64,000 nucleotides of DNA from contig JBDGSL010000033.1 of NCBI GenBank assembly GCA_042217555.1, forward strand, positions 865 to 64,864, given 5' to 3'. Under the pieces are notes generated by a model. That model was given only the letters and a program-made list of their open reading frames with translations. It ran no database searches and was not told the DNA's origin. Shown piece by piece: positions 2,318 through 61,002 of this stretch (position 1 is the first letter of the stretch; every line of letters starts with the position of its first letter). Origin of the DNA: Candidatus Nanohalobium sp. (lineage in GTDB: Archaea > Nanohalarchaeota > Nanosalinia > Nanosalinales > Nanosalinaceae). The position numbers were made by a program, and so were the translations under genes.

Positions 2318-5103
2318 CAGAATTTTCTCCCAATGATGAACAACTGGAACTGATCGAAAGCATCGACGGAATCTACAAGGTGGATGCAGGAGCAGGAACA
2401 GGCAAGACCTTCACGATAACAAGAAGATACGCTCACATACTGGAACAGGCAGACGTTGAGCCAGAAGATATTCTGCTTCTAACATTTACCAATAATGCTG
2501 CGGAGGAGATGAAGGAGCGGATCATCAACCACTGCAGCTACGACATGAAAAACCTGCGTGGCGAAGATCAGAATCTTCTTGGAGCAGACACCTACCGGAG
2601 TCTGCGTGAAGCACCAATATCTACATTCCACAGCTTGGCCAAAAAAATAATTACGGAAAACGGATTTGAAGCGCCAATATACCTAGGGATCGACGACCAC
2701 GTAACAAGCTCAACAAGACTAATTGAAAACGAAGTCCTGGAAAAACAGGAGTTCCGAAAGTTCATAAACAACTTCATAGAGGAAAACCCACAGTACAACA
2801 ACCTCTACAGAATTCTCTACGACTACAGCGAACTTCTCAGCCTGATTAAATCTCTCGCAGCAAAAGGTATAGTTCCAACTGAGGAAGGCTGGTACCGGAA
2901 CTCAGAAAGATACCTGGATGGAGACTTCGAAGAGTTCCAGGAACTTTTTGAGGAGATGAACGAACCAGGACAAGGATCTAGAGGCCCTACACAATCGGAT
3001 TTCCTGAAGAAAGCCGGAGGAATTTTCAGGAATAAGTGTCTGCCAGGGGACGCACCAGGTTATGGAGATGTAAAGGCTTCAAAACAGATTAAACCGGAGT
3101 ACGGCGAGAAGGCTTTCCAAGAGAATCGGGAAGAGCTGAAGCAGTTCATACATGACATCTACTTCGAATACCTCGAGTACTGTCTCTCCCACAACTATCT
3201 GAACTTCAACTTCCTACTAGTGTTTGCCTATGCTCTACTCTGTGAAGACGACGAACTACGTGAAGAACTCAGCTTCAAGTACTCGATGATCGACGAGTTC
3301 CAGGACACTAATGAAATTCAGTTCAAGGTTGCAATGCTTCTATCAGAAGGTAATATGGCGGTAGTCGGTGACTGGAAACAATCTATTTACAGCTTCCAAT
3401 ACGCCAATGTCGACAATATACGAGAGTTCAAAGAAAGGCTTCAAAAGTACAAAGAGGAGCTCAACCAGGATCAGAACAGGATAAGCTATGCTGTAGACGA
3501 TGCGGAAAGAATAGACTTGAAGCAGAACTACAGGTCTACACAGGAAATACTTGGCTTCTCTGAAGATAGCTTAACACTGCCTGGAAAAGACGGCGAAGAC
3601 GTAGAGGAGAAAGATATTGTTTCTCTAGAAACCAATAAGGAAGGACACAATACCTCGATAAGTAAGCTGAAGTCGGAAAATGAGTTAGAAGCAATACTTC
3701 ACAAGATTCAAGAAGTAGTCGAAAATCTGAATTATAGCTTGGAGGAAGAAGATCGGCCGCCCAGGTACGAGGATATTGCTATTTTAACCCGTACCAGGAA
3801 CTTTGGTCTGGAACTACAGGAAAAGGCCGAGGAGTACGGTATTCCGATTGCATATGAAGGTGGAGTAGAACTCTTCAAGACGAGGCCGGCTATTCTGCTT
3901 CTGGCGTGGCTCCGAGTACTCAACTACAGAAACTCAAGCAAAGGTTGGGCGGTAATACTAGAAGAGGCAGACTACAACTTGGCAGAAGTCGAACACATAC
4001 TCGAAAAAGGCGAGTACCCGGACGAGATGCTAGAGTTCAGATCAAAGCTTGAACAATTAGACGATGTATCAGCTATAGCCAGAAAAGTATTCTCCAGATA
4101 CGGAATCGAAAACGGTTTCTCCGACAAGGTTACACAGGTCCTTCAAGACACGTTTGATTCCAGTTACAAGAACCGGGGGGACCTGATCAGGTTCATAGAA
4201 GAAAGCATTGAAGAAGGAGAAACCTACGAAGTAGACGACTCCAAACCAGAAGCAGTAACAGTACAGACCATCCACTCAGCCAAAGGACTGGAATACCCAA
4301 TAGTATTTGTCTCAGACATAAACCAGAGACACTTCCCTTCCAACCAAGGAAGTAACTCAAGAATCATCTACGAAGATCCGGTAGGGCTGAGACAGAAGAA
4401 GATTTACTCTGAGGAAAACAGTTATCTCTATGATAACTGGAAAGCCAGTCTGGTTTCAAAGGTACTTACCGGAGACTACGATGAAGAGCGCCGACTCATG
4501 TATGTGGCGATGACAAGAGCTGAACAACATCTCTTCTTCACAGCAGAAACCGATAACGAAAGCCTATTCTTCGAACATCTAAATCTAGAGGCGGAGGAAA
4601 TAAGTCCTGAACTAGAAAAGACAGAATTTCACAGTGAGAAGGGAAAAAAGCTAGAGTTAGATAAACCAGAGGATAAAGCTCCGGTGAAGCGTTCAGTGCA
4701 CGCAGTAATGGAACTAGATGAAACTGCCAGAGGCAGAGGACCAGAATTCGGAACCAAAGTGCATGAGTTTGCAGAGAAGTATGCTAAAGGAGAAAAAGTC
4801 GAGCCAAGCAATGAAGACGAGGAAAACGTTGCCGAATACATCGACTCCTTGGAAGGAGACTTACGCCCTGAGATCCCGATCAAAGTTCCGACCGAAGAAG
4901 ACGGCAGAAAGGTAGTCTATCACGGAGTCATCGATCTTCTGCATATCACAGATAACGAAGTAGAGATAATCGACTGGAAGACAGACTTGTCAAAAGTAAA
5001 CCATGATGAATATGAGAAGCAGCTTGAAATATATGAAGAAGGAATTAAGAAGGTATTTGATCAGGAAGTTCAGAAAGAGATATTATATACAGAAGATCTT
5101 TAG
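2314..5103 (+). CDS. UvrD/AddA-like SF1 helicase with C-terminal PD-(D/E)XK nuclease (island copy)
   Basis: AGAGTGKT, DEFQD, VGDWKQSIY, NYRS, TIHSAKGLEYP, EERRLMYVAMTRA; C-terminal GTKVHE..GVIDLL..IDWKT. Probable start ATG 2314 overlaps the HEPN stop (ATGA). Confidence 0.9.
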   Translation: MTEFSPNDEQLELIESIDGIYKVDAGAGTGKTFTITRRYAHILEQADVEPEDILLLTFTNNAAEEMKERIINHCSYDMKNLRGEDQNLLGADTYRSLREAPISTFHSLAKKIITENGFEAPIYLGIDDHVTSSTRLIENEVLEKQEFRKFINNFIEENPQYNNLYRILYDYSELLSLIKSLAAKGIVPTEEGWYRNSERYLDGDFEEFQELFEEMNEPGQGSRGPTQSDFLKKAGGIFRNKCLPGDAPGYGDVKASKQIKPEYGEKAFQENREELKQFIHDIYFEYLEYCLSHNYLNFNFLLVFAYALLCEDDELREELSFKYSMIDEFQDTNEIQFKVAMLLSEGNMAVVGDWKQSIYSFQYANVDNIREFKERLQKYKEELNQDQNRISYAVDDAERIDLKQNYRSTQEILGFSEDSLTLPGKDGEDVEEKDIVSLETNKEGHNTSISKLKSENELEAILHKIQEVVENLNYSLEEEDRPPRYEDIAILTRTRNFGLELQEKAEEYGIPIAYEGGVELFKTRPAILLLAWLRVLNYRNSSKGWAVILEEADYNLAEVEHILEKGEYPDEMLEFRSKLEQLDDVSAIARKVFSRYGIENGFSDKVTQVLQDTFDSSYKNRGDLIRFIEESIEEGETYEVDDSKPEAVTVQTIHSAKGLEYPIVFVSDINQRHFPSNQGSNSRIIYEDPVGLRQKKIYSEENSYLYDNWKASLVSKVLTGDYDEERRLMYVAMTRAEQHLFFTAETDNESLFFEHLNLEAEEISPELEKTEFHSEKGKKLELDKPEDKAPVKRSVHAVMELDETARGRGPEFGTKVHEFAEKYAKGEKVEPSNEDEENVAEYIDSLEGDLRPEIPIKVPTEEDGRKVVYHGVIDLLHITDNEVEIIDWKTDLSKVNHDEYEKQLEIYEEGIKKVFDQEVQKEILYTEDL
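2554..2608. repeat. 48-bp in-frame double-hairpin insertion flanked by a 7-bp direct repeat
   Basis: CTGCGTG at 2554-2560 and 2602-2608; internal GAAGAT-CAGA-ATCTTC and GCAGAC-N10-GTCTGC; absent from the paralog at 31377. Confidence 0.75.
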
Positions 5104-5126
5104 GTTTTTGCCAGGTTGTAGGTAAA

Positions 5127-5186
5127 AAAGTGTGTATTCAGAATAAACACTTTAGAAGGAAAGTGTGTCTTGTCAGTACACACTTT
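5127..5186. promoter_or_regulatory. tandem 27-bp palindromic sites AAAGTGT-N13-ACACTTT
   Basis: Copies at 5127-5153 and 5160-5186 with identical arms and spacing, upstream of the PIN gene. Confidence 0.6.
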
Positions 5187-5289
5187 TGGTACCACAAGTA
5201 ATCGACTCCAAGCTTGTAAAAATTCTCAGTTTTTCATTGCCTACGTAAGGATTGTAAAAACAAGATCAAAATCTCAATATAGATAAATT

Positions 5290-5694
5290 GTGGAAAAAGT
5301 ATACGTAGACACCAACATCTTCCTTGACGCACTCAAGGACAGGACCAGCAGAAACGGCAGAGATCTAGGCACTCCTGCAATGAGCGTATTTTCTCAGGCA
5401 AAACACGGCAGATTCAAGATCATAGTCTCAGACTGGACTCTCCAAGAACTAGGTAAACATATAGAAACAGAAAAAGTCAAGGAGCTTTTTTCCGATATTG
5501 GAGAAGAACAGATTATTCGCTGCAGCTACAGCGAAGAACAGAAAAAGAAGGCAAAAGACTCCTCAAATCACTGGGAGGATTATTTACACGGTTTAGTAGC
5601 TGATGAAGAAGATGCGGACTGTATAGTAACTCGTAATGTTGATGACTTTAGAATTCTCTCAGGAGTCAAGGCCAAACTCCCTGGACAACTCTGA
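5290..5694 (+). CDS. PIN-domain (VapC-like) ribonuclease
   Basis: VYVDTNIFLD...QEL...EDYLH..IVTRNVDDF acidic tetrad. Confidence 0.85.
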   Translation: MEKVYVDTNIFLDALKDRTSRNGRDLGTPAMSVFSQAKHGRFKIIVSDWTLQELGKHIETEKVKELFSDIGEEQIIRCSYSEEQKKKAKDSSNHWEDYLHGLVADEEDADCIVTRNVDDFRILSGVKAKLPGQL

Positions 5695-6765
5695 GGAATC
5701 CATGTCTTCAAGCTCCTCTCTCCGTTCTTCCTTTTCTTCTTCCGATATCTCTTCGGCTGAACCCTGTAACTCCTCAAGCTCTTCATCGACTTCAGGCTTC
5801 TCAACAGCATCCTTGTGCAGCGAAATAAGTTCTGTCAATGCTTGCTCTACCTCGTCTCTCTTCTCCAGTTTCTCTTTTTCTGTCCTGGATTTAACAACTT
5901 CTTCGTCATAGTGCTCCGCCATGTCTTCTTGTAGACAGTAGAAAGCGATTAACTCCCAGAACTCCTCGAACGTGGTGGATACCTGTGATCTGTTGAACCG
6001 ATCTTCAACTAGATCAGGCGCGACCGCAATAAAGTCTACCAGGTCCTCTTCAACTTCATCATCAAGCTCCGGAGTCTTCGCTAAGAAGCTGTAAAGCTTT
6101 CTCTCAAACACTGAACTATCTTCAATATCTCCTGCCAGCAACTCTAGTATTTCTTCTTTTAGTTGGTATAGTTCCATGCCTTCCTCGTCATACTGCTTTC
6201 TTCGAGCCTCTCTAAATCCAAGCTCACCGTATTCTTCAACAGTATCCTCAACTGCTTCATCAATTTCCTCCTCACTGAAATCAGGACCGAAATCAACAGG
6301 GCCTACATTGTTAGCATCTCCAGGAGTAAAGTTCATAGGAGTGATAGAACCGTACTGATACCGGCCATATGGAAGACCTAAATCCAGCTTCTTAACCACT
6401 TTAACAGCAATCTTCTGATACATCAACTTCCCAGGAGTCTTACCAAACTGATCTCTGTACTCTTCCAAAATCTTGTCAAACAAGGCCTTAAACTTCTCCT
6501 TTTCATCATTCTTGAGCGGAAGCTCAAAGTATGCTTCTTTATCTTCGTACTCGGAAACATAGAACTCTCTAGTACGACCAGACTTATCTTCCTTAACTAT
6601 ACCTGCATCTCTAAGTTCCTCTAGATACTTTGTTACGCTCTGTCTATCAGCATTCACCGCATCAGAAATCTCCTGAATACTCTGCGGATCATTAGTGAGA
6701 GCTCCGGCAATATCGCCGACAAGCTCACGAGAAGATCTTTTTCCCATATATGTCACAATTGTCAC
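5659..6765 (-). CDS. wHTH protein with possible Panacea/DUF4065-like middle domain
   Basis: N-terminal QSIQEISDAVNADRQSVTKYLEELRDAGIV wHTH; KLMYQKI..GRYQYGSITP only loosely resembles the Panacea motif. Confidence 0.6.
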   Translation of the reverse strand: MTIVTYMGKRSSRELVGDIAGALTNDPQSIQEISDAVNADRQSVTKYLEELRDAGIVKEDKSGRTREFYVSEYEDKEAYFELPLKNDEKEKFKALFDKILEEYRDQFGKTPGKLMYQKIAVKVVKKLDLGLPYGRYQYGSITPMNFTPGDANNVGPVDFGPDFSEEEIDEAVEDTVEEYGELGFREARRKQYDEEGMELYQLKEEILELLAGDIEDSSVFERKLYSFLAKTPELDDEVEEDLVDFIAVAPDLVEDRFNRSQVSTTFEEFWELIAFYCLQEDMAEHYDEEVVKSRTEKEKLEKRDEVEQALTELISLHKDAVEKPEVDEELEELQGSAEEISEEEKEERREELEDMDSSELSREFGLDS

Positions 6766-6852
6766 AAACCTTTAATAAGAATGTTGCTATTTACTACCTG
6801 ATTTATTTCATGCTTCTAAATAACCATATTTTTAAGAATTAATGACGAATAA

Positions 6853-7038: not shown

Positions 7039-7094
7039 AGGAATTCGCAGAGCCATATAAACCTATGATACCTTAGATAGACCAAGACTTAGCC

Positions 7095-7439: not shown

Positions 7440-7448
7440 TTTACTAAA

Positions 7449-31313: not shown

Positions 31314-31376
31314 AACAACAAAATCTGATTAAACCCCTGCAAGCAACATTGTATAGTGAGCGGCGTGGTGATAGGT

Positions 31377-33644
31377 ATGGAGCCTAATCCACAGCAGAAG
31401 AACCTTATCGAGAGCACTGAAGGCGTTTATCTTGTTGATGCAGGTGCAGGGACGGGAAAGACCTTCAGTATCACTAGAAGATACGTGAACATACTGGAAG
31501 ATGCTGAACCGGAGGATATATTCCTGGCAACCTTCACAAGGAACGCAGCCGACGAGATGAAAGACAGGATAAGCCAGAGATCAAGTTATGACGCGGTTGA
31601 GATATTTGACGCTCCTATATCCACTTTCCACAGTCACTGCCAGAAAATCCTTGAAAGGCACGGCCATGAAGCACCTCAGATGCTGGGCATAGAACAGCAC
31701 CTGACAGAGGACGTGCAGGTTCTTGAAAGCCAGATAAGGGAGAGACAGTACTTCCAGAGCTTCATAGAGGAGTTCAGAGAGGCCTACCCCGAGTACCGGA
31801 ACTTTTTCAGGATCACACGCGATGAGTCCAACCTCCTGGAACTAGTGAAGTCGCTCGCAGCCAAAGGCATCATACCGGAGGAAGAAGGCTGGTTCGGTAA
31901 GACAGAACAGTACCTTGACGGAGACTTTGAAAGCTTTCAGAAACTTTTCAGGGAGAAAAACACTCCGGAGGAGAGAAACGGCGGGAAGAGACAGAGCGAG
32001 TTAAGGAAGAGGCTTTACAGCTACAAATGGAAGAACTTCACGCCGGAAGCTCCTGAAATAGAAGAAGTCAGAGGAGGTTACGGCACCAAACAGGTCAGAA
32101 AGGACTTCGCCAGGAAAGCGTTTGAGGAAGACACCGAAGAACTTAAAAAGTTCGTCCACACACTTTACAGAGACTACCTGGAGTACTCACTTGCCCACAA
32201 CTACCTTAACTTCGGTTTTCTTATGATACTGGCCTACATCATCCTGTACAGGAAGCCAGAGGCAAGAGACCGGGAAAAGTTTGACTACGTGATGATAGAC
32301 GAGTTCCAAGACACCAACGAGATACAGTTCAAACTGGCGTTGCTTCTATCCGGAGAGAAAAACCTTTGCGTTGTAGGAGACTGGAAACAGAGCATCTACA
32401 GCTTCCAGTATGCAGCAGTGGAGAACATACAGGACTTCAGGGAACGTCTTGACAGTTACAGCCGTGAACTCAATCAGGACAGGGAGAGAACTCCTTTCCC
32501 ATGCCAGGAAGTAGAGGAAATAAGATTGAAGGAAAACTACCGCTCCACACAGAAAATACTGGATACTGCAGAAAAAGCATTGAAGCTTCCGGCCTACGAC
32601 GGTGAAAACGTTGAAACACCTTCAGTACCTTCTCTTGAAGCCCAGGTGGAGGCAGATACTGAGGTTGGCAGGGTAGAGGCCGAGAATGAGAAAGAGGCAG
32701 TACTGGCCAGGATACAGAAACTGGTGGACAGTAAAAACCTTGGCTACGGTGATATAGCAGTTCTGGCAAGGACCCGGGGCTTTGGACTGGAACTGCAGGA
32801 TAAAGCACGTCAGTACGGTGTTCCTGCTGCTTACGAGGGAGGTGTAGAGCTTTTCAAGACCAACCCGTCGATACTGCTTCTGGCATGGCTGCGCATACTG
32901 CAGGACCGTCACTCATCGAAGGGATGGTCCGTAGTACTTGAAAAAGCCGGTTACAAGGTTTACGAGGCCGAAGAGATACTGGAGAAACGTAGCTACCCGG
33001 AAGACATGCTGGAGTTCAGAGAAGTACTTGAAGACCTGGAAGCCGTGGAGGCTGTCGCCGAGAAAGTGTTTCAGAAGTACGGCTACGCCAACGGATTCAC
33101 AGAGAAACTGGTGGAGGTCCTGGGAAACACGTTTGCCTCCAGCTACATGAACCTGGGCCAGTTGATAGAGTTCATAGAGGAGAATATAGATGAAGGTGAG
33201 ATATACCAGGTGGATACGTCCACAGGGGAAGACGCTGTCAACATACAGACTATTCACTCGGCAAAAGGACTGGAGTACCCTGCGGTAATCATCTCGGATG
33301 TCAACCGGTCGAAGTTCCCCTCTACAAACAGCTTCTCACCGAACATAACTTACAGGGAGCCGATAGGGCTCAGGCAGAGAAAAATCTTCAGAAACCACGA
33401 CTACGCCTACAGCTTCGACAACTGGCAGACCGAGATAATGGAAAAATGTCTGTCAGGAGAGTACGACGAGGAAAGACGGCTTATGTATGTCGCAATGACA
33501 AGGGCCGAACAGTACCTGTACATCACAGCAGAGAAAGGTAACGCATCAACATTCTTCACAGAACTGGACATCCAGAAAAAGAACGGGGAAGAACCGGAGA
33601 AGAGAGAAGAAAAACAGGACGAAAGAAAGGTATTCCAGCTCTAG
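31377..33644 (+). CDS. UvrD/AddA-like helicase lacking the C-terminal nuclease domain
   Basis: All SF1 motifs present; ends about 45 aa after motif VI; paralog of 2314-5103. Confidence 0.9.
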   Translation: MEPNPQQKNLIESTEGVYLVDAGAGTGKTFSITRRYVNILEDAEPEDIFLATFTRNAADEMKDRISQRSSYDAVEIFDAPISTFHSHCQKILERHGHEAPQMLGIEQHLTEDVQVLESQIRERQYFQSFIEEFREAYPEYRNFFRITRDESNLLELVKSLAAKGIIPEEEGWFGKTEQYLDGDFESFQKLFREKNTPEERNGGKRQSELRKRLYSYKWKNFTPEAPEIEEVRGGYGTKQVRKDFARKAFEEDTEELKKFVHTLYRDYLEYSLAHNYLNFGFLMILAYIILYRKPEARDREKFDYVMIDEFQDTNEIQFKLALLLSGEKNLCVVGDWKQSIYSFQYAAVENIQDFRERLDSYSRELNQDRERTPFPCQEVEEIRLKENYRSTQKILDTAEKALKLPAYDGENVETPSVPSLEAQVEADTEVGRVEAENEKEAVLARIQKLVDSKNLGYGDIAVLARTRGFGLELQDKARQYGVPAAYEGGVELFKTNPSILLLAWLRILQDRHSSKGWSVVLEKAGYKVYEAEEILEKRSYPEDMLEFREVLEDLEAVEAVAEKVFQKYGYANGFTEKLVEVLGNTFASSYMNLGQLIEFIEENIDEGEIYQVDTSTGEDAVNIQTIHSAKGLEYPAVIISDVNRSKFPSTNSFSPNITYREPIGLRQRKIFRNHDYAYSFDNWQTEIMEKCLSGEYDEERRLMYVAMTRAEQYLYITAEKGNASTFFTELDIQKKNGEEPEKREEKQDERKVFQL

Positions 33645-36954: not shown

Positions 36955-38490
36955 ATGTCACAGGAACTTGGAATAACGGTAAAGAAGGACCGCGATCCTT
37001 CAGAGTGGTACACACAGGTAGTTAAAAAAGCAGAACTGGCGAAATACGCCGACGTCAAGGGCTGCATGATAATCAAACCGTACGGAATGAAACTCTGGGA
37101 ATCAATAAAAGAGAACTTCAACGAGAAAATAGAAAGTACCGGAGTTGAAAACGCATACTTCCCACTCTTCATCCGCGAAAGCCAGCTGGAGAAGGAAGAA
37201 GACATCGTAGAAGGATTCGACCCGGAAGTCGCATGGGTAACACACGGAGGAAGCGACGAACTCGAAGAAAAAATCGCAGTAAGGCCTACATCAGAAAGCG
37301 TTATCGCACCATACATGGCAGACGAAATAAGAAGTCACAGGGACCTGCCTTTCAGAGTGAACCAGTGGGCAAACGTCGTACGCTGGGAAGCAACAGATAC
37401 AAGGCCTTTCCTGAGGACGAGAGAGTTCCTCTGGCAGGAAGGACATACAGCACACGCATCCGAGGAAGAAGCAGATGAGGAAACAATGCTGAGACTGGAA
37501 CAGTACAGACAGGTAATCGAAGACCATCTCGCTATCCCTTCAATCCTGGGATACAAGCCGGAGCACGACAAGTTCCCCGGAGCAAAATACACTACAACGA
37601 TCGAAACCTTGATGCCGGACGGGAAAAGCATCCAGTCAGGGACCTCACACCAGCTAGGACAGCACTTTGCCGAGGCCTTCGACATAACCTTTGAGGATGA
37701 GAACAGCGATGAGCAAACAGCGTGGACCACTTCATGGGGCCTCTCCACGAGGACGATCGGTGCCTTGATCATGGCACACGGTGACGATGAAGGCCTTAGA
37801 TTGCCTCCTTCCATTGCTCCGGTACAAACGGTCGTCGTACCTATCTACCAGGAAGACAACCAGGAAGAAGTCATGGAGTACGCAGAAAAAGTAGCCGAAG
37901 AACTGAAGAACGCAGATTGCTCCTGTGAAGAATCTGCTTGCAGCAGCAGTTCGGAGAAATGCTGCGAAAAAGGCCTTCGCGTAGAACTGGACGACAGAGA
38001 TCACAGAACACCGGGATACAAGTTCAACGAATGGGAACTCAAAGGCGTCCCACTCAGAGTCGAAGTAGGACCTAACGAAGTAGAAGACGACGCAGTCACC
38101 ACAGTAAGAAGAGACAACGGCAAGAAAGAAATGGGCAAGGACAGAGAAGAATTCCTAGAAAACGCAGAACAGGTCCTCGACGACATCCAGGAATCAATGT
38201 ATCAGGAACTGGAAGAATACCAGCAGGAGAACATCAGAGAAGCAGACTCCAAAAACGAAATCCTCGCAACAATCGGCAAAAACCGCGGCTACGTAAAAAC
38301 CCGCTGGTGCGGAAAAGAAGAATGCGAAGAAGAGATCAAAGACGAAGTATCCGCAGAAATCGTCGTCCTACCATTCCAGGAAGACAGCAAACCAGCCACC
38401 ATCCAGGACGAAGAAGAACACATCGACGGCAACTGCGCAATCTGCGGCGAGGATGCGGAACGCTGGGCATACTTCGCCAAGAATTATTGA
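36955..38490 (+). CDS. proS: prolyl-tRNA synthetase (archaeal/eukaryotic type) with a 19-aa insertion
   Basis: RPTSE, FLRTREFLWQEGHT, QSGTSHQLG, TSWGLSTR, C-terminal Zn module. Confidence 0.97.
   Translation: MSQELGITVKKDRDPSEWYTQVVKKAELAKYADVKGCMIIKPYGMKLWESIKENFNEKIESTGVENAYFPLFIRESQLEKEEDIVEGFDPEVAWVTHGGSDELEEKIAVRPTSESVIAPYMADEIRSHRDLPFRVNQWANVVRWEATDTRPFLRTREFLWQEGHTAHASEEEADEETMLRLEQYRQVIEDHLAIPSILGYKPEHDKFPGAKYTTTIETLMPDGKSIQSGTSHQLGQHFAEAFDITFEDENSDEQTAWTTSWGLSTRTIGALIMAHGDDEGLRLPPSIAPVQTVVVPIYQEDNQEEVMEYAEKVAEELKNADCSCEESACSSSSEKCCEKGLRVELDDRDHRTPGYKFNEWELKGVPLRVEVGPNEVEDDAVTTVRRDNGKKEMGKDREEFLENAEQVLDDIQESMYQELEEYQQENIREADSKNEILATIGKNRGYVKTRWCGKEECEEEIKDEVSAEIVVLPFQEDSKPATIQDEEEHIDGNCAICGEDAERWAYFAKNY
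37909..37966. repeat. 57-bp in-frame double-hairpin insertion in proS
   Basis: GCAGATT-N12-AATCTGC and GCAGCA-N11-TGCTGC; ends CGCAG...CTGCG; encodes NADCSCEESACSSSSEKCC. Confidence 0.7.
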
Positions 38491-53502: not shown

Positions 53503-53544
53503 AAGATTTTAACCAACGGGGAAAACAAAGAGAAAAAACCGGGG

Positions 53545-56500
53545 TCAACAATCAACCGGCCCGGAAAAGCTGAACCCGGCTCTTCTACCCTTAAACTCGA
53601 CCTCCCCGGAATACTCATACTCCTTACCACCGAAGTCCAGTCCAGCAAGATTCACCCTGGAACAAACCTCATCCTCATGCTGCTCCAAAACCTCTGTATC
53701 ACCGGAGAACGAAAGATTCACCCGGTCATCTACTTCAAGACCGGCCTCCTTCCGCTTCTGCTGGATGGCCCGGAGGACTTCAGAGACGAAGGCTTCGTCC
53801 TCAAGTTCGGAGGTCATTTCGTCGTCTAGGTAGACTGTTCCTTCAGAGAACTCTTCTCCATCCATCTCTTCCGGTACGTGAGTCCTTATATCGAACATGC
53901 CAGGTGAGAGACTGTGTCCTTCGATTTCGACTTCCTCTCCGTTTTCAACCTTCTCAGCTACTTCTCTGTGGTTCATCTCTGCAAGGGTTGATTCTACTTC
54001 TTCCACGTCTCCACCAAGTTCTGGCCCGGCTTTGCTATAGTTCAGTTTCACCTCGTAGTCAAGCTCAACCTTCTCGAACTCTACATTTTTGGCATTAAGC
54101 CGTTCCTCCAGCAGTTCTTGAAGGCTGTCTACTGTACGTTCTACTTCGTCGTTTCCTGATACCGTGACCTTCCTGACAGGGTGTCTCAGTTTCACTCCGT
54201 TCTCCTGTCGAAGCCTTGCAACTGCTTCCTGTATGTCCTGGAACAGCTCCATGTTCCTCTCAAGCTCTTCATCGATTAACTCTTCATCTACTTCAGGATA
54301 ATCCTCCAGATGGATTGACTGTTCTCTATCCCAGTGATAATCCGCAAAGTAGGGTGTGAAAGGTGCAAGTACTTTCAGCAACTGGTCCGTAACGGTTCGC
54401 AGCGTCCACTCGGCTGCCTGCCTGTCATCTCCGTCATAGCCAGATTTAAGCCTGTCTCTGATCATCTTGATGTAACTCCGGGAAAGATCGTTGGCTGCGA
54501 AGTCCTCGATAGCGTTGACTGCCTTAAACGCTGTGAAATGGGGTTCTGAGGAGTACTTCTTCACTTCTCTGATCATAGTGTTGAGCCGGGAGAGAATCCA
54601 TTCATCTTCTAGTTCAAGGTTATCCGGCCTCTCTGCCTCTGTTGTGTAAGTATCCTTGTACTCGTAGGTGTTCCAGAGAAGGTTCATGAAGTCGAAGCTT
54701 TCTTCCACTTCATCCCACTCCCAGCTCCAGTCCTCGGAGACATCCTTTGTCAGGATGTAGTACCTCATCAGGTCCCTTCCATAATCCTCGATAACTTCCT
54801 CCGGACGGACAACTATTCCCTTGGACTTGGACATCTCCTGTCCCTCAAGCTTCACCTTGCCGTGGTAGACAACGTTGTCGAAAGGACGGGTATCGTGGGT
54901 CATGATAGAGGTGATGAACTGGCTGTTCCACCATCCGCGGATCTGGTCGAAACCTTCCTCTTCAAGGTCGACCGGGCCTTCCTCCTCAAACGTGAAGTCG
55001 ACATCCGGATGCTTCAGAGAAGCCCATGGCGCGACACCAGAGTCAAACCAGACATCCAGCACATCGGGTATGCGTTCCATAGTTCCGCCGCACTCTTCAC
55101 ATTCCAAAGTTACTTGGTCAATGTACGGTCTGTGAAGATCGTCAAGATCTTCCGGCAACTCGTCTCTTGATCCTACTACATGCGTGTGATCGCAGTCGTT
55201 GCACTCCCAGATCGGTAGAGGGATACCCCAGTAACGCTGCCGTGAGACAGGCCAGTCACCGAGCTGTTCAAGCCACTCTCCGAACTTGTCTCCAGCCCAG
55301 TCAGGAACCCAGTTAACCTTATCGTTTTCCTCAAGAAGCCGGTCGCGGAACTGTGTAGCTCCGAAGAACCACTGCGGGATTGAAAGCTGGAGTAGTGGTG
55401 TGTCACATCTCCAGCACTTCGGATACTCATGGTTTATACTTCCCGAGAACAGGAGGCTTCCTTTCTCCTTAAGATCGGCTTTGATTTCTTCGTCGGCATC
55501 CTTGACGAATTTACCCTCGTACTTTCCAGCTTCCTCAGTATAATGGCCTTTCAGGTCGACAGGTGAGATCTTAGGAAGGTCTTCTTCCTGTCCGACTTCA
55601 TAGTCCTCCTTACCGTGGCCCGGCGCTGAATGCACCAGCCCTGTTCCTCCGGAAAGATCGACGTAGCGTTCGGAAAGAACAACTCTTCCCTGAACATCCT
55701 GCTGGGCAGGTACCTCCTCTTCAAGAGGGTGTTCGTATTCTATATCTTCTAAGTCTTCCCCTTTGACAGTCTTGACTACTTTGTACTCATCTTCCTTGTA
55801 GCCAAACTTGTCCATGATGTCTTCCAATAGTTCGGTGGCCATCCAGACCTTCCTGCCGTTGAACTCGACTAGCGAGTATTCGAATCCTGGGTGGACCATT
55901 ACTCCTGTGTTGGATGGAATCGTCCATGGAGTTGTAGTCCAGATCATCAGTTCCTCCTCCGAACCCTTAACCGGTAGAGTGACGTAGACCTCTGGATCTT
56001 CCTTGTCCATGTACTCTACCTCGTTGTACGCTACGGCCGTCTCACACCGGGTGCAGACATGGACAGGGTAACTGTCTTCGTATAGGAATCCTTTCTCGTG
56101 TGCCTGTTCGAATGTCTCCCAGGCACCTTCTATGTAGTAGTTGTGGAAGGTAAGGTATGGGTTCTCCCAGTCCATCCAGACGCCCATATCCTTGAAGTCA
56201 TCATTCATATCGTCGATGTACTTTGTAGCAAAGTCTTTGCATTCAGAGATAAAGTTAGCGACCCCGAAGTCTTCGATATCCTGTTTAGATGTGAATCCTT
56301 CCTGCTCCTCAACCTTGTTCTCGATCGGCAGTCCGTGGGTGTCGTAACCCGGCTGTGCGTGGACGTAGTAGCCGTTCATACGGTGGAAACGGATGAAGTA
56401 ATCCTTCAGAATCTTACCCATCGCCGTACCCATATGCATTGAGCCTGTAGCGTACGGCGGGCCGTCGAGGAAGTAGAATATCTCGCCGTCTTCCCTGTTC

Positions 56501-56586
56501 TTGTTTAAAGCCTCTCTTCTAGTGTTTTCTTCACTCCATTTTTGCCTGACCTGGTTCTCCACTTTTTCAGGGTCGTAATCAGTCAT
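53545..56586 (-). CDS. ileS: isoleucyl-tRNA synthetase
   Basis: DGPPYATGSMHMG, WTTTPWT, GTGLVHSAPGHG, SRQRYWG, EMSKS. Confidence 0.97.
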   Translation of the reverse strand: MTDYDPEKVENQVRQKWSEENTRREALNKNREDGEIFYFLDGPPYATGSMHMGTAMGKILKDYFIRFHRMNGYYVHAQPGYDTHGLPIENKVEEQEGFTSKQDIEDFGVANFISECKDFATKYIDDMNDDFKDMGVWMDWENPYLTFHNYYIEGAWETFEQAHEKGFLYEDSYPVHVCTRCETAVAYNEVEYMDKEDPEVYVTLPVKGSEEELMIWTTTPWTIPSNTGVMVHPGFEYSLVEFNGRKVWMATELLEDIMDKFGYKEDEYKVVKTVKGEDLEDIEYEHPLEEEVPAQQDVQGRVVLSERYVDLSGGTGLVHSAPGHGKEDYEVGQEEDLPKISPVDLKGHYTEEAGKYEGKFVKDADEEIKADLKEKGSLLFSGSINHEYPKCWRCDTPLLQLSIPQWFFGATQFRDRLLEENDKVNWVPDWAGDKFGEWLEQLGDWPVSRQRYWGIPLPIWECNDCDHTHVVGSRDELPEDLDDLHRPYIDQVTLECEECGGTMERIPDVLDVWFDSGVAPWASLKHPDVDFTFEEEGPVDLEEEGFDQIRGWWNSQFITSIMTHDTRPFDNVVYHGKVKLEGQEMSKSKGIVVRPEEVIEDYGRDLMRYYILTKDVSEDWSWEWDEVEESFDFMNLLWNTYEYKDTYTTEAERPDNLELEDEWILSRLNTMIREVKKYSSEPHFTAFKAVNAIEDFAANDLSRSYIKMIRDRLKSGYDGDDRQAAEWTLRTVTDQLLKVLAPFTPYFADYHWDREQSIHLEDYPEVDEELIDEELERNMELFQDIQEAVARLRQENGVKLRHPVRKVTVSGNDEVERTVDSLQELLEERLNAKNVEFEKVELDYEVKLNYSKAGPELGGDVEEVESTLAEMNHREVAEKVENGEEVEIEGHSLSPGMFDIRTHVPEEMDGEEFSEGTVYLDDEMTSELEDEAFVSEVLRAIQQKRKEAGLEVDDRVNLSFSGDTEVLEQHEDEVCSRVNLAGLDFGGKEYEYSGEVEFKGRRAGFSFSGPVDC

Positions 56587-56627
56587 GAATCGAAGAACGG
56601 CTCTGAAATTTAAAAGTATTTTTTAGT

Positions 56628-56770
56628 CCGGTATCTTAACGAACTTGATCCTCTTCTCCTCGAATCCTTTCTCGCGGTAGAACTTTACGACACCGCTGTC
56701 TTTGCCCTTCTCTCAGTTGGCCTCCGGCCATCATGTAGTTGGCGTCCGCCCTCAGCTCGTCGACTTCACA
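56628..56770 (-). pseudogene. possible GNAT acetyltransferase remnant
   Basis: Frame fragment KDSGVVKFYREKGFEEKRIKF resembles the GNAT C-terminal motif; no intact ORF. Confidence 0.25.
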
Positions 56771-57350
56771 TCCATTCGATGCTTTCTCCTCTCCCGGGTT
56801 TCGATTCTTCTGTGTCTTTTTCCTCGTTTTCTTCTTCCATGTCTTCTGTTTCTTGTTTGAATCTCTGGCTTTCAGGGTGTGGCTCGACCTTCTCTGCTTC
56901 AAAGTTTGGAGTTACGGAGTTCATCTCTCCCTGTATCTCCCGAAGTCTGTCCTGATCCTGAAGTTCTTCGCGGTGCTGGAAGATTGCTCCTGTCGGCGTC
57001 CCTGCATTTTCATCCTCCTCGAACCGTGGAAATATCTGTATGTATGCGTGTGGCAGCATCTGCCCTCCGGCCTCCTTCACGTTCATAGTAATAGAGACTC
57101 CGTCAGCTCCCAGGCCGTCGATAGCTTTCTGAACTGTTTCACGTGTCAGGGTCATTGCTTCGTGGTACTCTCCCGGTGAGAACTCCAGTATGGATTCTTT
57201 GTGTTCCTTGGGGACGACGTTGGCGTGGCCTCTTGCCCGTGGCTGCACTTCAAGCCATGCGTAGAAGTTTTCCGTCTCCCCTACTGTTATCAACTGTTCC
57301 GGGTTCTCTATCAACTGGCAGAAAGGACACTGATCGCCTTGAGGTGGCAT
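56766..57350 (-). CDS. HIT-family protein with altered triad (HAYIQ)
   Basis: CPFC, RGHANVVPKEH, AGGQMLPHAYIQIFPRF; acidic tail. Confidence 0.85.
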   Translation of the reverse strand: MPPQGDQCPFCQLIENPEQLITVGETENFYAWLEVQPRARGHANVVPKEHKESILEFSPGEYHEAMTLTRETVQKAIDGLGADGVSITMNVKEAGGQMLPHAYIQIFPRFEEDENAGTPTGAIFQHREELQDQDRLREIQGEMNSVTPNFEAEKVEPHPESQRFKQETEDMEEENEEKDTEESKPGRGESIEWM

Positions 57351-57386
57351 AAAACAGTTTTTCTGACCGATAGGTTTTATAGCTTT

Positions 57387-58073
57387 TTAGATGAAACGCG
57401 GCGTATCCCTCATGTACTCTCTGTAACTTTCTCCGAACTCCTTCACTGCCTCTCTTTCTTCTTCCCTGCTTAACCTGTAGTACTCGTAGACTACGATAGG
57501 TAGGAGCAAACCGGTTAAGGGAGTAGGCCATCCTACAAACCAACCGAAGGAGATCAGTATGATACCCAGGTACTGCGGATGCCGTGAAAAACGGTAGATA
57601 CCGTTCCTGGCCAGACCCTCCGCGTTGTAAACCGTGTACCAACCCAGTGCAACGACTCCACACCCCAGTAAAGTTATGACTAAACCTATCAGCATCCACA
57701 GGTTCAGAGCAAAACCTGCAAAGCTGAACAGAAAACCTGGTACCTGGCCCGATGAAGGCATCGAGACAAGGGCCGAAGACAGATAAACCGTCAACGGCAA
57801 ACCGTACATCTCGACAAACAGGGAGATCAGGAAAGCAGTGTAGATCCCGGCACTTCTCCAGTCCGCCTTCCTCCTGTATCTAAGCGGCAGCAAGAACAGA
57901 AGAAAGAACACGGTGCTTCCCATGACCAGAAGCCAGGCATCCTGCTTCATGAAAAACCTGATCTGCCCTGAAAGAAAGAACTTCAAGTGCCGGTAGAACG
58001 ACGGGAGGGAAACCACTGCAAGAAGAAACAGTGACAACGCGACAAAACCCCGCCTGTCAAAAGAAAGACTCAT
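57387..58073 (-). CDS. isoprenylcysteine carboxyl methyltransferase/PEMT-like membrane protein
   Basis: Multi-TM; GIYRFSRHPQYLG..EEE..FG..Y.EY....PRF. Confidence 0.8.
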   Translation of the reverse strand: MSLSFDRRGFVALSLFLLAVVSLPSFYRHLKFFLSGQIRFFMKQDAWLLVMGSTVFFLLFLLPLRYRRKADWRSAGIYTAFLISLFVEMYGLPLTVYLSSALVSMPSSGQVPGFLFSFAGFALNLWMLIGLVITLLGCGVVALGWYTVYNAEGLARNGIYRFSRHPQYLGIILISFGWFVGWPTPLTGLLLPIVVYEYYRLSREEEREAVKEFGESYREYMRDTPRFI

Positions 58074-58101
58074 AAAGAAAAATTAGAGAGAAACAGGTTT
58101 T

Positions 58102-58407
58102 TTACATTGGCGGCATATCGTCATCCGGCATACTCCCCGGGCCTCCAGCACCAGGACCTTCCATCCCAGGATCATCCATCATCGTACCGCCGGAATCTTC
58201 CTCAACCTTCTCCATAAGCTCTCTGACCTCTTCGATAAGGTTTTCAAGCTCTCTCTCAGAGTCAGCCTCCTGAAGCTTGGTCTCAAGCTGCGAAACCTTG
58301 GTCCTGAGTTCCCGTGCTGCTTTACCGGTACCACCGAACGTTTCCAACGTCATCTCAGCTGAGTCAAGCACTGCCTCAGCCTCCTGCCGTTTCTCTTCCA
58401 GTGACAT
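58102..58407 (-). CDS. hypothetical coiled-coil protein with Gly/Pro/Met tail
   Basis: ORF from ATG 58407. Confidence 0.65.
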   Translation of the reverse strand: MSLEEKRQEAEAVLDSAEMTLETFGGTGKAARELRTKVSQLETKLQEADSERELENLIEEVRELMEKVEEDSGGTMMDDPGMEGPGAGGPGSMPDDDMPPM

Positions 58408-58522
58408 GTTACAGTCACAACACAACTGCACTTTTAAAGGTTTGGAAATCCAGCAGGTAGAAACTTCAGAAAAGAGCTTAAAGCAAAAATAGTTAAAAGG
58501 AAGAAATTGAAACACGGAGAGC

Positions 58523-58876
58523 TTAATCAGCGATCTCTCCGAAGGCAAACTTGTTCCCTACCGAAGTAATCTCTACGTCATAGCTCTCATCTACTTCTCC
58601 ACCAGGAACAAATACTACAAAGCCTTCAACTCTTGCAATACCATCGCCTTTACTTCCCAGGTCTTCTATCTCTAACTCAACGATTTCTCCCTCGGAAACA
58701 GGCTTGTCAAACTCCTGTTCTTCCTCCTCTTCCTGAGAACTATCACGGCCTTCTTCCTGAGGCTCACCTTCCTCCTCAACCGGTTCATCCTCAACGGGCT
58801 CCTCAACAGGCTCTTCAGAGTTTTCATCATCTTCAAACTGCGCATCAAAATCGTCATCCTCAAAATCTTCTACCAT
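58523..58876 (-). CDS. TRAM-domain RNA-binding protein with acidic N-terminus
   Basis: EGEIVELEIEDLGSKGDGIARVEGFVVFVPG..VEITSV..FAFGE. Confidence 0.9.
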   Translation of the reverse strand: MVEDFEDDDFDAQFEDDENSEEPVEEPVEDEPVEEEGEPQEEGRDSSQEEEEEQEFDKPVSEGEIVELEIEDLGSKGDGIARVEGFVVFVPGGEVDESYDVEITSVGNKFAFGEIAD

Positions 58877-59063
58877 AAGTAAATCACGTTAAACTGTAAC
58901 AAAAAAGAAAAAGTTGAAACTTAAAAAGTCGACATTGATATCGCCCTCGCGTATCAAACACAAACCAACAGATAATAGAAAAAGAAATTTTTCTGAGACT
59001 CTTACAGACCTCCAGGAATAGGGCGCTTCTACTTATTGACCTTTTTCATGCCTCTGATTTCAA

Positions 59064-59381
59064 CTAATCTACGTTCAAGTCTCTGAGTCTTTTCTCTACT
59101 TCTTTCAGATCTTCTCTGCTGTAGGCGTAGTCTCTGTGCCTGACTGCGAATACTGTTAGTTCTGAGTCTACGAAGTCGAAGTAGATTCTGTGGTTGAAGT
59201 TGTTTTCCGTCAGTTTTAGCCTATGGAATTCTATGCCGAACTGCGGTTTGTGGATGTAGCTGATCTTGTCCTGATCTCTGTCTTCTCCTAATCTTTCTTC
59301 TACGTGATCAAGGAGGCCTTCTCTCGTTTCCAGTTCAAACCCTTTCAGGTCCTGTTTGGCCTCTGAGGTTATTTCGACCAT
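59064..59381 (-). CDS. RelE/ParE-like toxin
   Basis: VEITSEAKQDLK..HRLKL..HRIYF..VFAVRHRD.AY. Confidence 0.7.
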   Translation of the reverse strand: MVEITSEAKQDLKGFELETREGLLDHVEERLGEDRDQDKISYIHKPQFGIEFHRLKLTENNFNHRIYFDFVDSELTVFAVRHRDYAYSREDLKEVEKRLRDLNVD

Positions 59382-59620
59382 TATGTAATCTCCTCTCTGA
59401 CTTCTTCCAAGGACTGAGTCTCTACATCTCCCTGCTTGAGTTTGATAGCCCGGAGCAGCAGTTCAGGATCTATCTCATTGTCCTCTTCTATCTTCTCTCT
59501 CAGAGCCTGTCGGATGTACTCTGAAGGACTCTTGAAATTCTTTCTCTCAGCAGTCTCCTTTATCTCATCTTTCAGTCCTTCCGGAACATCCACACTTATT
59601 CTTGCCATCTCAAATCCCAC
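59381..59620 (-). CDS. ribbon-helix-helix (CopG-like) antitoxin
   Basis: RISVDVPEGLKDEIK..FKSPSEYIRQALRE; 1-nt overlap with the toxin gene. Confidence 0.8.
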   Translation of the reverse strand: MGFEMARISVDVPEGLKDEIKETAERKNFKSPSEYIRQALREKIEEDNEIDPELLLRAIKLKQGDVETQSLEEVREEIT

Positions 59621-59689
59621 CTCTTATATGATGCCAGTGTGAGAAAGATATTAAAATCTTGGTGTTATGTGTCGGGTTCCTTCAGCTCG

Positions 59690-60424
59690 AGATTTCCTTC
59701 ATCGCTGATTTTCCACTCGAGTTCCTGGCCTCCAGGAAGATCCACAGAGTTCAGATGTGAACTACCTCAACCTAACTCGCTCAAGCTGACGCTTTCGCTT
59801 CGTGAGGAAGGGGCTTGTCAGTGAACTCTTCTCCTAACCCATGACTGGGTAGGCGGTGTGGTCGCCGTTCAGATTCACCGTTCCTGACTTCAGAGCCAGT
59901 TGACCGTGGCTCTTCCACATCTTCCACAGCTCTACCTATTATGCTGTAGGCGGCGTTGTAGCTCATCTGATTTTCGTAACTAGATCTGAAGATGTATGCG
60001 TCAGGATCAGTCCTTTTCCAAAACACTGTAGTCGAGAAAAAGTCTGTAAGGCGTTCTCCATCTATATATTCCCGCTTGCTTTCCAGGAAGTCGCCGCACA
60101 TTTTCTTCAAGGCCTTCTTGTACTCCATTTTAGTACGGTCACTTAGTTCTCTATCCCTGATTCTGTCCTTGTTTATACCAGCTACTAGATCGGTCATGTT
60201 GTCCTTGAGGTCTCATCTATTTTCCAGGAGATATGTTCGGTGAACCTCTTCCAGGCATAGAGATATCTTGATATCCTGTCTATGGAAAGTCCCTGAACAT
60301 CCAGAAATCTCTTGAACTACGTTATAATCTCTTTATTATGGTCTTGGATTCTGCTGGACTCTTCTATAGCTTTTAGAGTGTTCTCGATCTTGTCTTTTCG
60401 GCTGTGGATGTCGCCTTGACTCAT
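59690..60424 (-). pseudogene. decayed tyrosine integrase
   Basis: ATG 60424, TAG at codon 36, frameshift, deletions; SDRTKMEYKKALKK and DPDAYIF match SAKTKMEYKSAIKR and NPDAYLF of the 22239-23585 integrase. Confidence 0.8.
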
Positions 60425-60482
60425 GTTTCTCAGTTCTCCACCCACTTTTAGTTGTGACCGAATTATCTTTCAGAAATGATTA

Positions 60483-60800
60483 CGCCGGCGCCCGGATTAC
60501 TGAACGAACTGCCAGACGAAGCAGTTCACAGTTCTAAAAAAGAAACCTGAAAGCCATGACTTTTGCATGGCTTCTTGCGTGTGTTGAAGACCGGATGGTC
60601 TTCTGCTCAAGAAGATCAGTTGCCTGATCTTCGGGAACTCAGCGTCGAAGACTTCGTCGGAAGTCTTCTCGAAGCAGATCCGGAGATCTGCGGTAACGAG
60701 TTCGCCGGCGCCCGGATTTGAACCCGAAGCTCGCCGCACCGGGAGGTTCTCACATCAAATCCAAGCTTAGGCGTGAAACGCCGGCGCCCGGATTTGAACC
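60483..60800. repeat. three copies of the tRNA-Ser 3' end bracketing a six-hairpin cassette
   Basis: CGCCGGCGCCCGGATTTGAACC at 60779-60800 and 60703-60724; 16 bp of it at 60483-60498. Confidence 0.88.
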
Positions 60801-61002
60801 GGGGAGGGACGGGTATGTCCCAGCAGATACTTCGGAAACTTCTGAAAGTTTCATCATCATAAACCGCACTCCGCCTTGCTCCGGCGGCTTCCGGTTTACT
60901 CTGCGCATCTGCCGAAAGCCATGCATCGCATGGTTTGACATGATCGAACTTTGTGAAGTTCGCTCGAATCTGCCGCGTTCAGCCAGACTCTGCCACGCCG
61001 GC
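60779..61002 (-). tRNA. tRNA-Ser(CGA) with 134-nt intron (60829-60962) at 37/38
   Basis: GCCGGCG/CGCCGGC acceptor, GCAGA-TTCGAG|A-TCTGC, long variable arm GGGAC/GTCCC; TTCG/CGAA BHB helix; mature 90 nt. Confidence 0.92.

Follow-up and report, generated by a model that had tools for sequence, protein, structure and literature searches.

Do the short hairpins that recur in the introns of transfer RNA (tRNA) genes, behind tRNA genes and inside protein-coding genes of a nanohaloarchaeon belong to one family of moving elements? The question is raised by a 64,000-nt stretch of a Candidatus Nanohalobium genome (the window; bases 865-64864 of contig C27), for which a sequence-only reading had described four hairpin modules, a to d, as a single family of tiny cassettes. 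We find this interpretation partly supported, in that it was right in kind but lumped two different things together. The explanation that we cautiously favour is that small non-autonomous hairpin insertion elements, common to the Nanosalinaceae, occur in two layers and are exchanged by recombination at tRNA exons. The first layer is a structured element of 55-95 nt, here called unit H; the second consists of 17-27-nt GAAR..YTTC palindromes, either single or double with a T-K-N-CCA-like linker. Both layers have been gained and lost among close relatives, and near-identical copies stand at unlinked loci and in both orientations.

The assembly under study (G000) comprises 1.31 Mb in 88 contigs. 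Relatives are numbered from G001 upward, and the family set consists of 50 Nanosalinaceae genomes, among them the closed genome of the same-genus relative G003 and further closed genomes.

Two of the four modules form one element

Each of the four modules was found where it had been reported, and the expectation that they are commoner than in shuffled sequence held against shuffle controls for modules a and b. Specifically, module a (GCCATG-N3-9-CATGG) gives six strand-hits at four places in the window against 0.05 expected, including a fourth copy at 25810-25830, and nine of its 10 loci across the assembly lie within or adjoin tRNA genes. The two 30-mers of module b agree at 28 of 30 positions, and none of 100 shuffles gave any match. 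Its 16-nt core occurs five times in the assembly, three times in or beside tRNA genes (on the window contig and on C73) and a fourth time 54 nt upstream of tRNA-Gly(TCC) on C76. Both modules are thus far beyond chance. The other two are not specific repeats. For module c (GAAGAT..ATCTTC) the window has four occurrences where dinucleotide shuffling predicts 0.23, yet the module is generic as a sequence, because 6-bp GAAR..YTTC hairpins in long open reading frames (ORFs) match codon-shuffle expectation across the assembly (33 versus 31.7); it falls into the generic GAAR..YTTC class. Module d (GCAGA..TCTGC) reaches five occurrences in the window against 1.3 expected, a count equalled in one of 100 shuffles, and is weak, since GCAG-type stems form no recurrent class in the assembly; it belongs to no family.

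When introns and flanks are read side by side, a recurring block identifies modules a and b as neighbouring parts of one element, unit H. It consists of a head hairpin, ACGCAA, a second hairpin (module a), YUGAUGAU and a third hairpin (module b). The head has a 4-6-bp stem of variable sequence and the loop GTTACGCT (invariant; GUUACGCU in RNA form), followed by (A)CACGCAA. Hairpin 2 usually reads AAGCC....GGCTT plus TYCAG, and full copies continue with YTGATGAT and the third hairpin, RAACTYTCAGRAGTTY, a block that corresponds to module b on the opposite strand. The block of modules b and a also occurs in sense orientation in the tRNA-Trp intron, in a trailer on C83 and in relatives.

With GTTACGC-N4-14-WCGCAA as the head pattern and its reversal as the control, 11 matches were found in the assembly (fewer than one expected by our own estimate) and about 130 in the family, in 34 of the 50 genomes and 19 of the 21 genera; the reversed control gave three. 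Among 96 copies with flanks, the head starts 0-6 nt from one of four landmarks: the tRNA 3′ end (sense), nucleotide 37 (sense, as the first bases of the intron), the tRNA 5′ end (antisense, pointing away from the gene) or a stop codon, the last context being limited to a few orthologous protein genes. In the trailer context, oligo-T often follows the element, and 78-127 nt past seven of 21 trailer copies there is a repeat of the T-loop and 3′ end of the tRNA itself.

The head stem covaries. In 82 distinct copies aligned without gaps, its six pairs are 87.6% paired versus 52.7% after shuffling, and the covariation score is 0.83 versus 0.21 for shuffled sequences and no more than 0.17 with the partner slid. 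Because G.U outnumbers A.C by 32 to 5 in the inner five pairs, the pairing is selected as RNA, on the strand bearing GUUACGCU. A permissive-threshold search of both tRNA regions against Rfam returned only tRNA and no family matching unit H. The complement of the head loop (GAGCGUAACC), considered as a possible target, matches only the elements themselves and one 8-nt site in tRNA-Gly exon 2. Box C/D, hammerhead, K-turn and H/ACA assignments for the UGAUGA block and the GA..GA-flanked hairpins were rejected by eye, no consistent box D, GAAA or pseudouridylation pocket being seen.

Several observations concern the surroundings of unit H. It stands directly after a small gene ending ..KCPDCG(Y/W)SKC* in three genomes (C46:100-230 in the assembly under study; L139, L145) and likewise after a second orthologous gene ending ..GETVL* (L074, L120, L144). 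At L125, L136 and L142 it lies antisense against a conserved GTGGGTAGAAAAATACAGGCC, where another non-coding RNA gene may have its 5′ end. The tRNA-Trp and tRNA-Met introns (C15:16514-16855, C31:50-239; L077, L083) have in common a block GATGAGG..GAGAAGA-hairpin..CCGATGATTA, which is kept in G003 and G047 and resembles a candidate intron-borne box C/D-type guide. The tRNA-Trp intron of Haloferax is a known guide of this type.

Introns and arrays at tRNA genes

With introns disallowed, ARAGORN found no tRNA gene. With introns allowed, it called 42 tRNA genes in the assembly, a set that includes a few doubtful calls, and 34 of the 42 carry introns of 33-268 nt, built from the short hairpins. Nearly all calls place the intron after position 37. 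Several calls are odd, a 'Stop' tRNA and introns at positions 30-33 among them (C12:115150-115320, C3:56918-57064 and C75:19755-19907); these look like mispredictions but could also represent tRNAs that have several introns or non-canonical ones. The window holds tRNA-Leu(CAG), tRNA-Arg(CCT), tRNA-Gly(GCC) and a long-arm tRNA called Arg(TCT) by ARAGORN, which we read as Ser(CGA) on account of its variable arm and its anticodon loop UUCGAG. In several relatives the introns of tRNA-Gly, Ser, Leu and Val are absent and the exons directly adjacent, which fixes the borders of the Gly and Ser introns (Table 1).

The family includes the cultured Nanohalococcus and Nanohalovita, and in two cultured genera 15 of 39 and 4 of 38 tRNAs bear introns (PMC10266531). 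An Rfam scan found introns in at least 12 of 30 tRNAs of G003. Intron load in the family ranges from about 10% to 80% of tRNA genes, and the assembly under study is the most intron-rich genome among those compared. A single splicing endonuclease match (PF01974) was found in it, in a 190-aa open frame on C3.

Relations among introns are apparent at several loci. The tRNA-Ser intron contains module a (60916-60936), and its ends, about 30 nt each, are inverted copies of module b, with a match at about 23 of 30 positions. The fold of this intron has a z-score of -5.6 against shuffles, and in the minimum-energy structure of pre-tRNA-Ser the intron ends are paired with the anticodon arm, the bulge-helix-bulge being judged by eye only. 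The tRNA-Thr(CGT) intron is 81% identical over 88 nt to a tRNA-Val flank, and the tRNA-Arg(GCG) intron is 86% identical over 35 nt to that of tRNA-Thr(CGT). The head motif occurs in the introns of at least six tRNA species in the assembly and of more in relatives.

Behind tRNA-Gly and tRNA-Ser, the same components are arranged in arrays between repeated tRNA 3′ ends (Table 1). In the Gly array, which contains tandem units of 97 nt, two of the GAAA..TTTC hairpins are fused to degenerate tRNA 3′ ends (..GAATCCTGGACACCACA and ..GGATGCAGCA). Blocks with 92-95% identity to the one behind tRNA-Gly occur in the flank of tRNA-Glu(TTC) on C37 and at the end of C11; the C37 block, although it stands behind tRNA-Glu, ends in a Gly-type rather than a Glu-type tRNA end. 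The 161-nt array behind tRNA-Ser begins right after a mere tRNA 3′-end fragment. Its components, in tRNA-strand order, are a head-like AACTCGTTACCG, hairpin d (60674-60691), three GAAG..CTTC hairpins (60647-60668; 60611-60632, which is module c; 60586-60603), ACACGCAA and hairpin 2 (module a, 60551-60573). Its fold has a z-score of -6.4 against shuffles, and over 81 nt it shares 90% identity with a paralogue at C48:16154-16233.

Table 1. Features of the window, in window coordinates
Feature	Position	Strand	Basis or remark
In-frame insert of 48 nt in the AddA-like helicase-nuclease gene (ORF 2194-5103)	2561-2608	+	Absent from homologues
Tyrosine recombinase gene, 448 aa	22239-23585	-	PF00589 match at C27:23454-23990; GC profile; spacer sequence
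tRNA-Leu(CAG) intron, 101 nt, short hairpins (gene 23697-23882)	23744-23844	-	ARAGORN; several relatives with adjacent exons
tRNA-Arg(CCT) intron, 69 nt (gene 23927-24070)	23964-24032	-	Rfam tRNA match with 71-nt insertion; ARAGORN
tRNA-Gly(GCC) intron, 60 nt (gene 25653-25784)	25690-25749	+	Rfam; ARAGORN
Unit H copy directly after tRNA-Gly	25785-25835	+	Head TAAG-GTTACGCT-CTTA, then ATCGCAA and hairpin 2, AAACCATG..CATGGCTT (the fourth module a copy)
Degenerate tRNA-Gly T-arm and 3′ end, GGTTTTCAACATCTTGGATGCCGCA	25857-25881	+	
Modules b and a: hairpin 3, AUCAUCAU, hairpin 2, inverted relative to the tRNA	25882-25932	+	
Run of GAAA..TTTC hairpins	25943-26077	+	25943-25960, 25990-26007, 26024-26040, 26051-26067
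Second head motif, TAAGGTTACGCTCTTATATCGCAATAA, past the last tRNA-end copy	26078-26104	+	
proS hairpin pair, GCAGATT/AATCTGC and GCAGCA/TGCTGC, in a Cys-rich lineage-specific insert (ORF 36955-38490)	37912-37965	+	
Third partial tRNA-Ser 3′ end (60483-60498), preceded on the tRNA strand by a GAACTGC..GCAGTTC hairpin (60506-60527)	60483-60527	-	Likewise in G006
161-nt array, long form of unit H	60542-60702	-	Missing at the G006 locus, which is near-identical otherwise
T-arm and 3′ end of tRNA-Ser, second copy, 54 nt past the gene	60703-60725	-	
tRNA-Ser(CGA) intron, 134 nt (gene 60779-61002)	60829-60962	-	Exons adjacent in relatives

Short palindromes in spacers and coding sequences

For the second layer we counted perfect hairpins with a stem of at least 7 bp and a loop of 3-8 nt. 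Within 350 nt of tRNA genes there are 123 versus 5.5 expected (22-fold), in other spacers 307 versus 51 (6-fold) and in coding sequences 466 versus 410 +/- 15. The commonest stems (GAAAATC, GAAACTC, GAAAACC and GAAGATC) are alike in all three zones. The pattern GAAAATC-N3-6-GATTTTC is present in 38 of the 50 family genomes at up to 21 copies per genome, the number found in the assembly under study, whereas the reversed control gave about none. Numbers of spacer hairpins are proportional to spacer length, and no spacer type (convergent, divergent or tandem) is preferred, which speaks against their being terminators or operators. Single mismatches in the generic hairpins of introns and trailers comprise nine G.U and 16 A.C; having no G.U excess, these hairpins behave as DNA palindromes, unlike the head of unit H.

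With respect to coding sequences, three genes chosen solely for GAAR hairpins of at least 7 bp, encoding a helicase (C39), a threonyl-tRNA synthetase (ThrRS; C3) and an AsnB-like protein (C1), were compared with their orthologues, and in each of them an indel falls exactly at the hairpins. The helicase gene has two hairpins in G000, one in G009 and none in G002, G003 and G004; ThrRS has two modules in G000 and G009 and none in G001-G004; and the AsnB-like gene has two hairpins in G000, a decayed copy in G001 and none in four others. The AddA insert in the window carries the hairpins 2563-2578 (GAAGAT/ATCTTC) and 2584-2605 (GCAGAC/GTCTGC), is flanked by the 7-bp direct repeat CTGCGTG (2554-2560 and 2602-2608) and encodes 16 residues that are missing in all 19 aligned homologues, including the closest, in G013 (90% in the genome search, 83% by tblastn). 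A search for encoding contigs gave no independent record of the AddA protein. All four inserts are stop-free multiples of three encoding Ser/Glu/Asp-rich peptides, and therefore fit translation rather than splicing; a spliced mini-intron in mRNA was rejected on these grounds and because the hairpins stand side by side instead of forming one bulged helix.

The AsnB insert aligns with spacer double hairpins at 35.6 bits, where no shuffle exceeded 32.6; they have flanks and linker in common, and their first stem is compensated. Long ORFs contain two adjacent hairpin pairs versus 0.1 expected. Hairpin insertion into genes is genuine, though rare. The insert of proS is 13 aa shorter in same-genus genomes and absent from most others; its stems are not of the GAAR type, and it is a candidate only for the hairpin family. 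The proS insert (37900-37970) encodes CSCEESACSSSSEKCC at a place where GC(A/S)C is found in same-genus genomes, and it may be a metal-binding loop that has grown. Separately, the orthologue of the C39 helicase in G001 (C1, L165) contains a long, intein-like extra segment (..TADHPVLVKSGE..). A hairpin at 55134-55152, in an ORF of 1013 aa, is probably a chance hairpin in ordinary coding sequence.

Gain, loss and possible exchange between lineages

The three contexts that the sequence-only reading had listed are real: introns at position 37/38, arrays between repeated tRNA 3′ ends, and in-frame inserts, in AddA and, as a lineage-specific insert, in proS. Filled and empty orthologous sites exist in relatives for each of them. 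The tRNA-Gly(GCC) exons are adjacent in G001, G003, G005, G009, G011, G015 and G016 (two same-genus genomes and five others); G006 and G010 have the intron, with an identity of 81-83%. For tRNA-Ser(CGA), the exons are adjacent in G001, G002, G003 and G009, and the intron is identical in G006, a member of another genus. There (C4, L179), about 230 nt running from the anticodon stem through the intron and exon 2 into the spacer are 100% identical to G000, while exon 1 differs at three sites and the neighbouring gene and flanks are only about 70% identical. The simplest reading of this alignment would be a recent recombination across conserved exons; cross-assembly may also have produced it.

Movement between contexts is suggested by the tRNA-Val/tRNA-Met locus. 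At the syntenic position in G047, an intron-less tRNA-Val is followed by a unit H that is identical at 48 of 53 nt to the first part of the G000 tRNA-Val intron; G003 has neither intron nor unit H. Unlinked copies within the assembly under study reach 95% identity over 104 nt and 90% over 81 nt.

Origin and spread of the elements

In the explanation that we favour, non-autonomous elements would persist wherever they are harmless. Copies in introns and trailers would be removed from the RNA by the splicing endonuclease and by tRNA end-processing enzymes, spacer copies would be neutral, and copies in proteins would persist only as in-frame, stop-free, hydrophilic loop insertions. Homologous recombination across conserved exons would spread intron-bearing tRNA alleles among lineages, and unit H could switch from trailer to intron. 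One repertoire indeed runs through introns, arrays and proteins, as had been proposed; what does not survive is the notion of one family of four cassettes, given two layers with module d outside both. The proposed kinship of the protein inserts holds for AddA by architecture only, the similarity of AddA and proS to the tRNA arrays being no greater than that of shuffles.

How the hairpins are inserted can only be inferred, because no mover was found among recombinase, Y1, Cas1 and GIY-YIG candidates. As to the suggested integrase, the assembly has 10-12 tyrosine recombinase genes, none of which lies within the Gly or Ser array, the nearest one being that of the tRNA-Leu locus. An IS200/IS605 element occurs in a single copy (C11:15100-16860, with tnpA, tnpB and a run of N in tnpB). 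Two family-type hairpins lie 60-110 nt upstream of its tnpA. Its TnpA was considered as a mover in view of a GAAACTCC hairpin upstream of tnpA, but set aside since the element is single-copy and Y1 transposases are present in two of the 50 genomes. As regards the features of miniature inverted-repeat transposable elements, the flanking repeats have no fixed length (7 bp in AddA, at most GAAG microhomology in other protein inserts, and 14-26 nt of tRNA end in trailers), and no autonomous partner with matching ends and a transposase was found. The tRNA-Ser intron has inverted ends, and most other copies are hairpins without distinct termini.

Several observations weigh against the explanation. 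Y1 transposases are confined to the two genomes just mentioned, Cas1 was absent in our search, on which ground a casposase was rejected, and GIY-YIG matches, considered with an Ssn-type nuclease as mover in mind, occur in 10 of 50 genomes, most of the clear ones lying in long open frames of about 570 aa taken as UvrC. Hairpin stems vary among copies without a master sequence. Insertion into genes must be rare, a handful per genome, as 6-bp GAAR hairpins in long ORFs are at chance level; the AddA, helicase, ThrRS and proS inserts resemble other loci no more than shuffles do; and each hairpin in AddA and ThrRS has one arm that was already part of the target, which fits local template switching. 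Unit H stands behind tRNA-Glu(TTC) in at least five genera with compensatory changes, and such conserved position looks more like a functional RNA than a selfish element. Finally, the assembly mixes related strains or species: proS occurs in three copies on different contigs (C27, C62 and C34; protein identity 82-84%), from which we conclude that more than one strain was binned, and tRNA-Pro(CGG) has two loci.

That unit H is a vertically inherited functional RNA motif, for instance a processing or protein-binding mark, whose adjacency to gene ends reflects genome compaction and which is unrelated to the other hairpins, seems to us rather unlikely. Strand-specific covariation with its G.U bias, an 8-nt loop that does not vary among about 130 copies in 19 of 21 genera, and the frequent oligo-T all speak for it, as do the constant positions across genera behind tRNA-Glu(TTC), in Thr, Val and Cys introns and behind a small zinc-ribbon gene. 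It does not readily explain why the same variant is an intron in one genus and a trailer in another, why a long copy follows a tRNA-end fragment in G000 and not in G006, why copies lie antisense at tRNA 5′ ends, or why 16 of 50 genomes lack an exact-pattern match; neither an Rfam family nor a genomic target complementary to it was found, and a functional role is in any case compatible with mobility. The diversity of the stems, the missing transposase and the generic hairpins without RNA-type G.U bias point in another direction, namely that hairpins arise in place, fold-back or template switching copying the target inverted and slippage duplicating tRNA ends, with nothing moving at all. The AddA insert does read target, inverted target, target, with GAAG/CTTC, GCAG and a second CTGC copy, and CTGCGTG flanks; in ThrRS a pre-existing GAAGGC forms the 5′ arm of the new hairpin; and the 97-nt tandem units behind tRNA-Gly suit slippage. 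Even so, we hold this to be improbable, given composite blocks of 80-100 nt that are 90-95% identical at unlinked loci, the conserved linkers and flanks of the AsnB insert and spacer double hairpins, and a GAAAATC stem that recurs hundreds of times over 38 genomes, which arbitrary local copying would not give.

The Gly and Ser arrays could also be scars of repeated integration and decay of integrase elements at tRNA att sites, the hairpins being remains of element ends, in line with a comparable model published for Caldiarchaeum (PMC3293823). The 10-12 tyrosine recombinase genes, one of them beside tRNA-Leu at a low-GC region of about 22 kb, fit such a history, as do the direct repeats of tRNA 3′ ends (16-38 nt) and the identical G000/G006 patch, which starts in the anticodon arm and covers the 3′ part in the manner of an element-borne att segment. 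We doubt it, however: the repeats are 54-204 nt apart with only hairpins between them and neither an integrase gene nor a coding remnant, one and the same small element, flanked by tRNA-end repeats, follows various tRNAs in several genera (in seven of 21 trailer copies), and the same modules occur in canonical introns and in spacers far from tRNAs. At most, scars would account for the repeated tRNA ends and not for the cassette family. Very little probability attaches to chance matches and metagenome assembly artefacts, which the shortness of modules c and d and the several strains in the assembly might suggest; the shuffle controls for hairpins and modules, the presence of motifs in up to 38 independent assemblies including closed genomes, and the occurrence of the ThrRS, AsnB-like and, in part, helicase inserts in other assemblies all argue to the contrary.

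Building on the two-layer explanation, we put forward as a speculative extension that unit H acts as an intron-seeding cassette, passing from trailer to anticodon loop before the allele spreads among genera. Recombination involving a partial copy of a tRNA might effect the move, as might the splicing endonuclease and ligase acting on RNA, and the inverted ends of unit H would themselves supply the helix needed for splicing.

Genomic context of the window

The first 22 kb or so of the window have a GC content of 39-44%, as opposed to 47-50% elsewhere. The 448-aa tyrosine recombinase gene lies some 110 nt past the 3′ end of tRNA-Leu(CAG), borders the low-GC region (1-22000) and is context only, outside the cassettes. 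The stretch 1-23585, bounded by this recombinase gene behind tRNA-Leu(CAG), is probably an integrated element. The AddA-like gene within the low-GC region has its best relative in G013, of another genus, and same-genus genomes match only a paralogue at 31356-33644.

Comparison with known systems and significance

In the literature we found no description of these elements, nor of intron-rich Nanohaloarchaeota tRNAs beyond intron counts. Rickettsia palindromic elements, which measure 100-150 bp and have recognisable family consensus sequences (PMC10969869), are likewise small palindromes that occur in spacers, in RNA genes and in frame in housekeeping proteins, form hydrophilic loops and are patchy among relatives; the assembly studied here also has many palindrome copies and in-frame inserts absent from orthologues. 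It differs in its 17-27-nt hairpins or double hairpins of about 50 nt, which share only GAAR/YTTC stem ends, linkers and architecture, in the archaeal host and in the strongest tie being to tRNA introns and flanks.

Double-hairpin elements have reportedly been described from the mitochondrial DNA of Allomyces by Paquin and colleagues in 2000. These and the GC clusters of yeast mitochondria (PMC4478555) resemble the present elements in being tiny, in occupying spacers, introns and in-frame coding positions, in their compensatory stems and in having no known encoded mover, but they belong to organelle genomes, are unrelated in sequence and include no tRNA-boundary element like unit H. Repetitive extragenic palindromes (REPs) and their RAYT transposases offer a further parallel, as palindromes of 20-40 nt that are enriched in spacers and often paired (PMC3733652). 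The present hairpins lack GTAG/CGTC end tags, have stems that begin with GAAR, and coexist with a RAYT-type Y1 protein in only the two genomes noted above. REPs are not known to occur in tRNA introns or in frame within proteins.

For tRNA introns themselves, the closest precedents are the intron transposition proposed for Thermoproteales (Fujishima et al. 2010, as far as PMC4090602 discusses it) and, in Caldiarchaeum, the gain of introns by way of a mobile element (PMC3293823). Homologous introns in different tRNA genes, patchy presence and partial tRNA copies near intact genes are features held in common, and the Thr/Val (81%) and Arg/Thr (86%) matches lie above the 70% identity between introns of different tRNA genes used for Thermoproteales. 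In contrast to those cases, the introns here are canonical (37/38), long (33-268 nt) and provided with a conserved structured head, the same element also serves as a trailer, at tRNA 5′ ends and behind stop codons, and an identical intron patch occurs across genera.

A 2026 preprint on Asgard archaea states of archaeal tRNA introns that 'how they arrive remains open'. The Nanosalinaceae make the route of intron gain testable, by virtue of their variable intron load, the structured head, the shift between trailer and intron, the shared patch and the cultured members of the family. The hairpin with the GUUACGCU loop, which covaries cleanly and has about 130 copies, is a candidate new RNA motif, and the in-frame hairpin insertions extend a Rickettsia-type phenomenon to DPANN archaea. 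If intron seeding by unit H were true, the family would show archaeal tRNA intron gain in progress, and its hairpin machinery would also add peptide loops to proteins.

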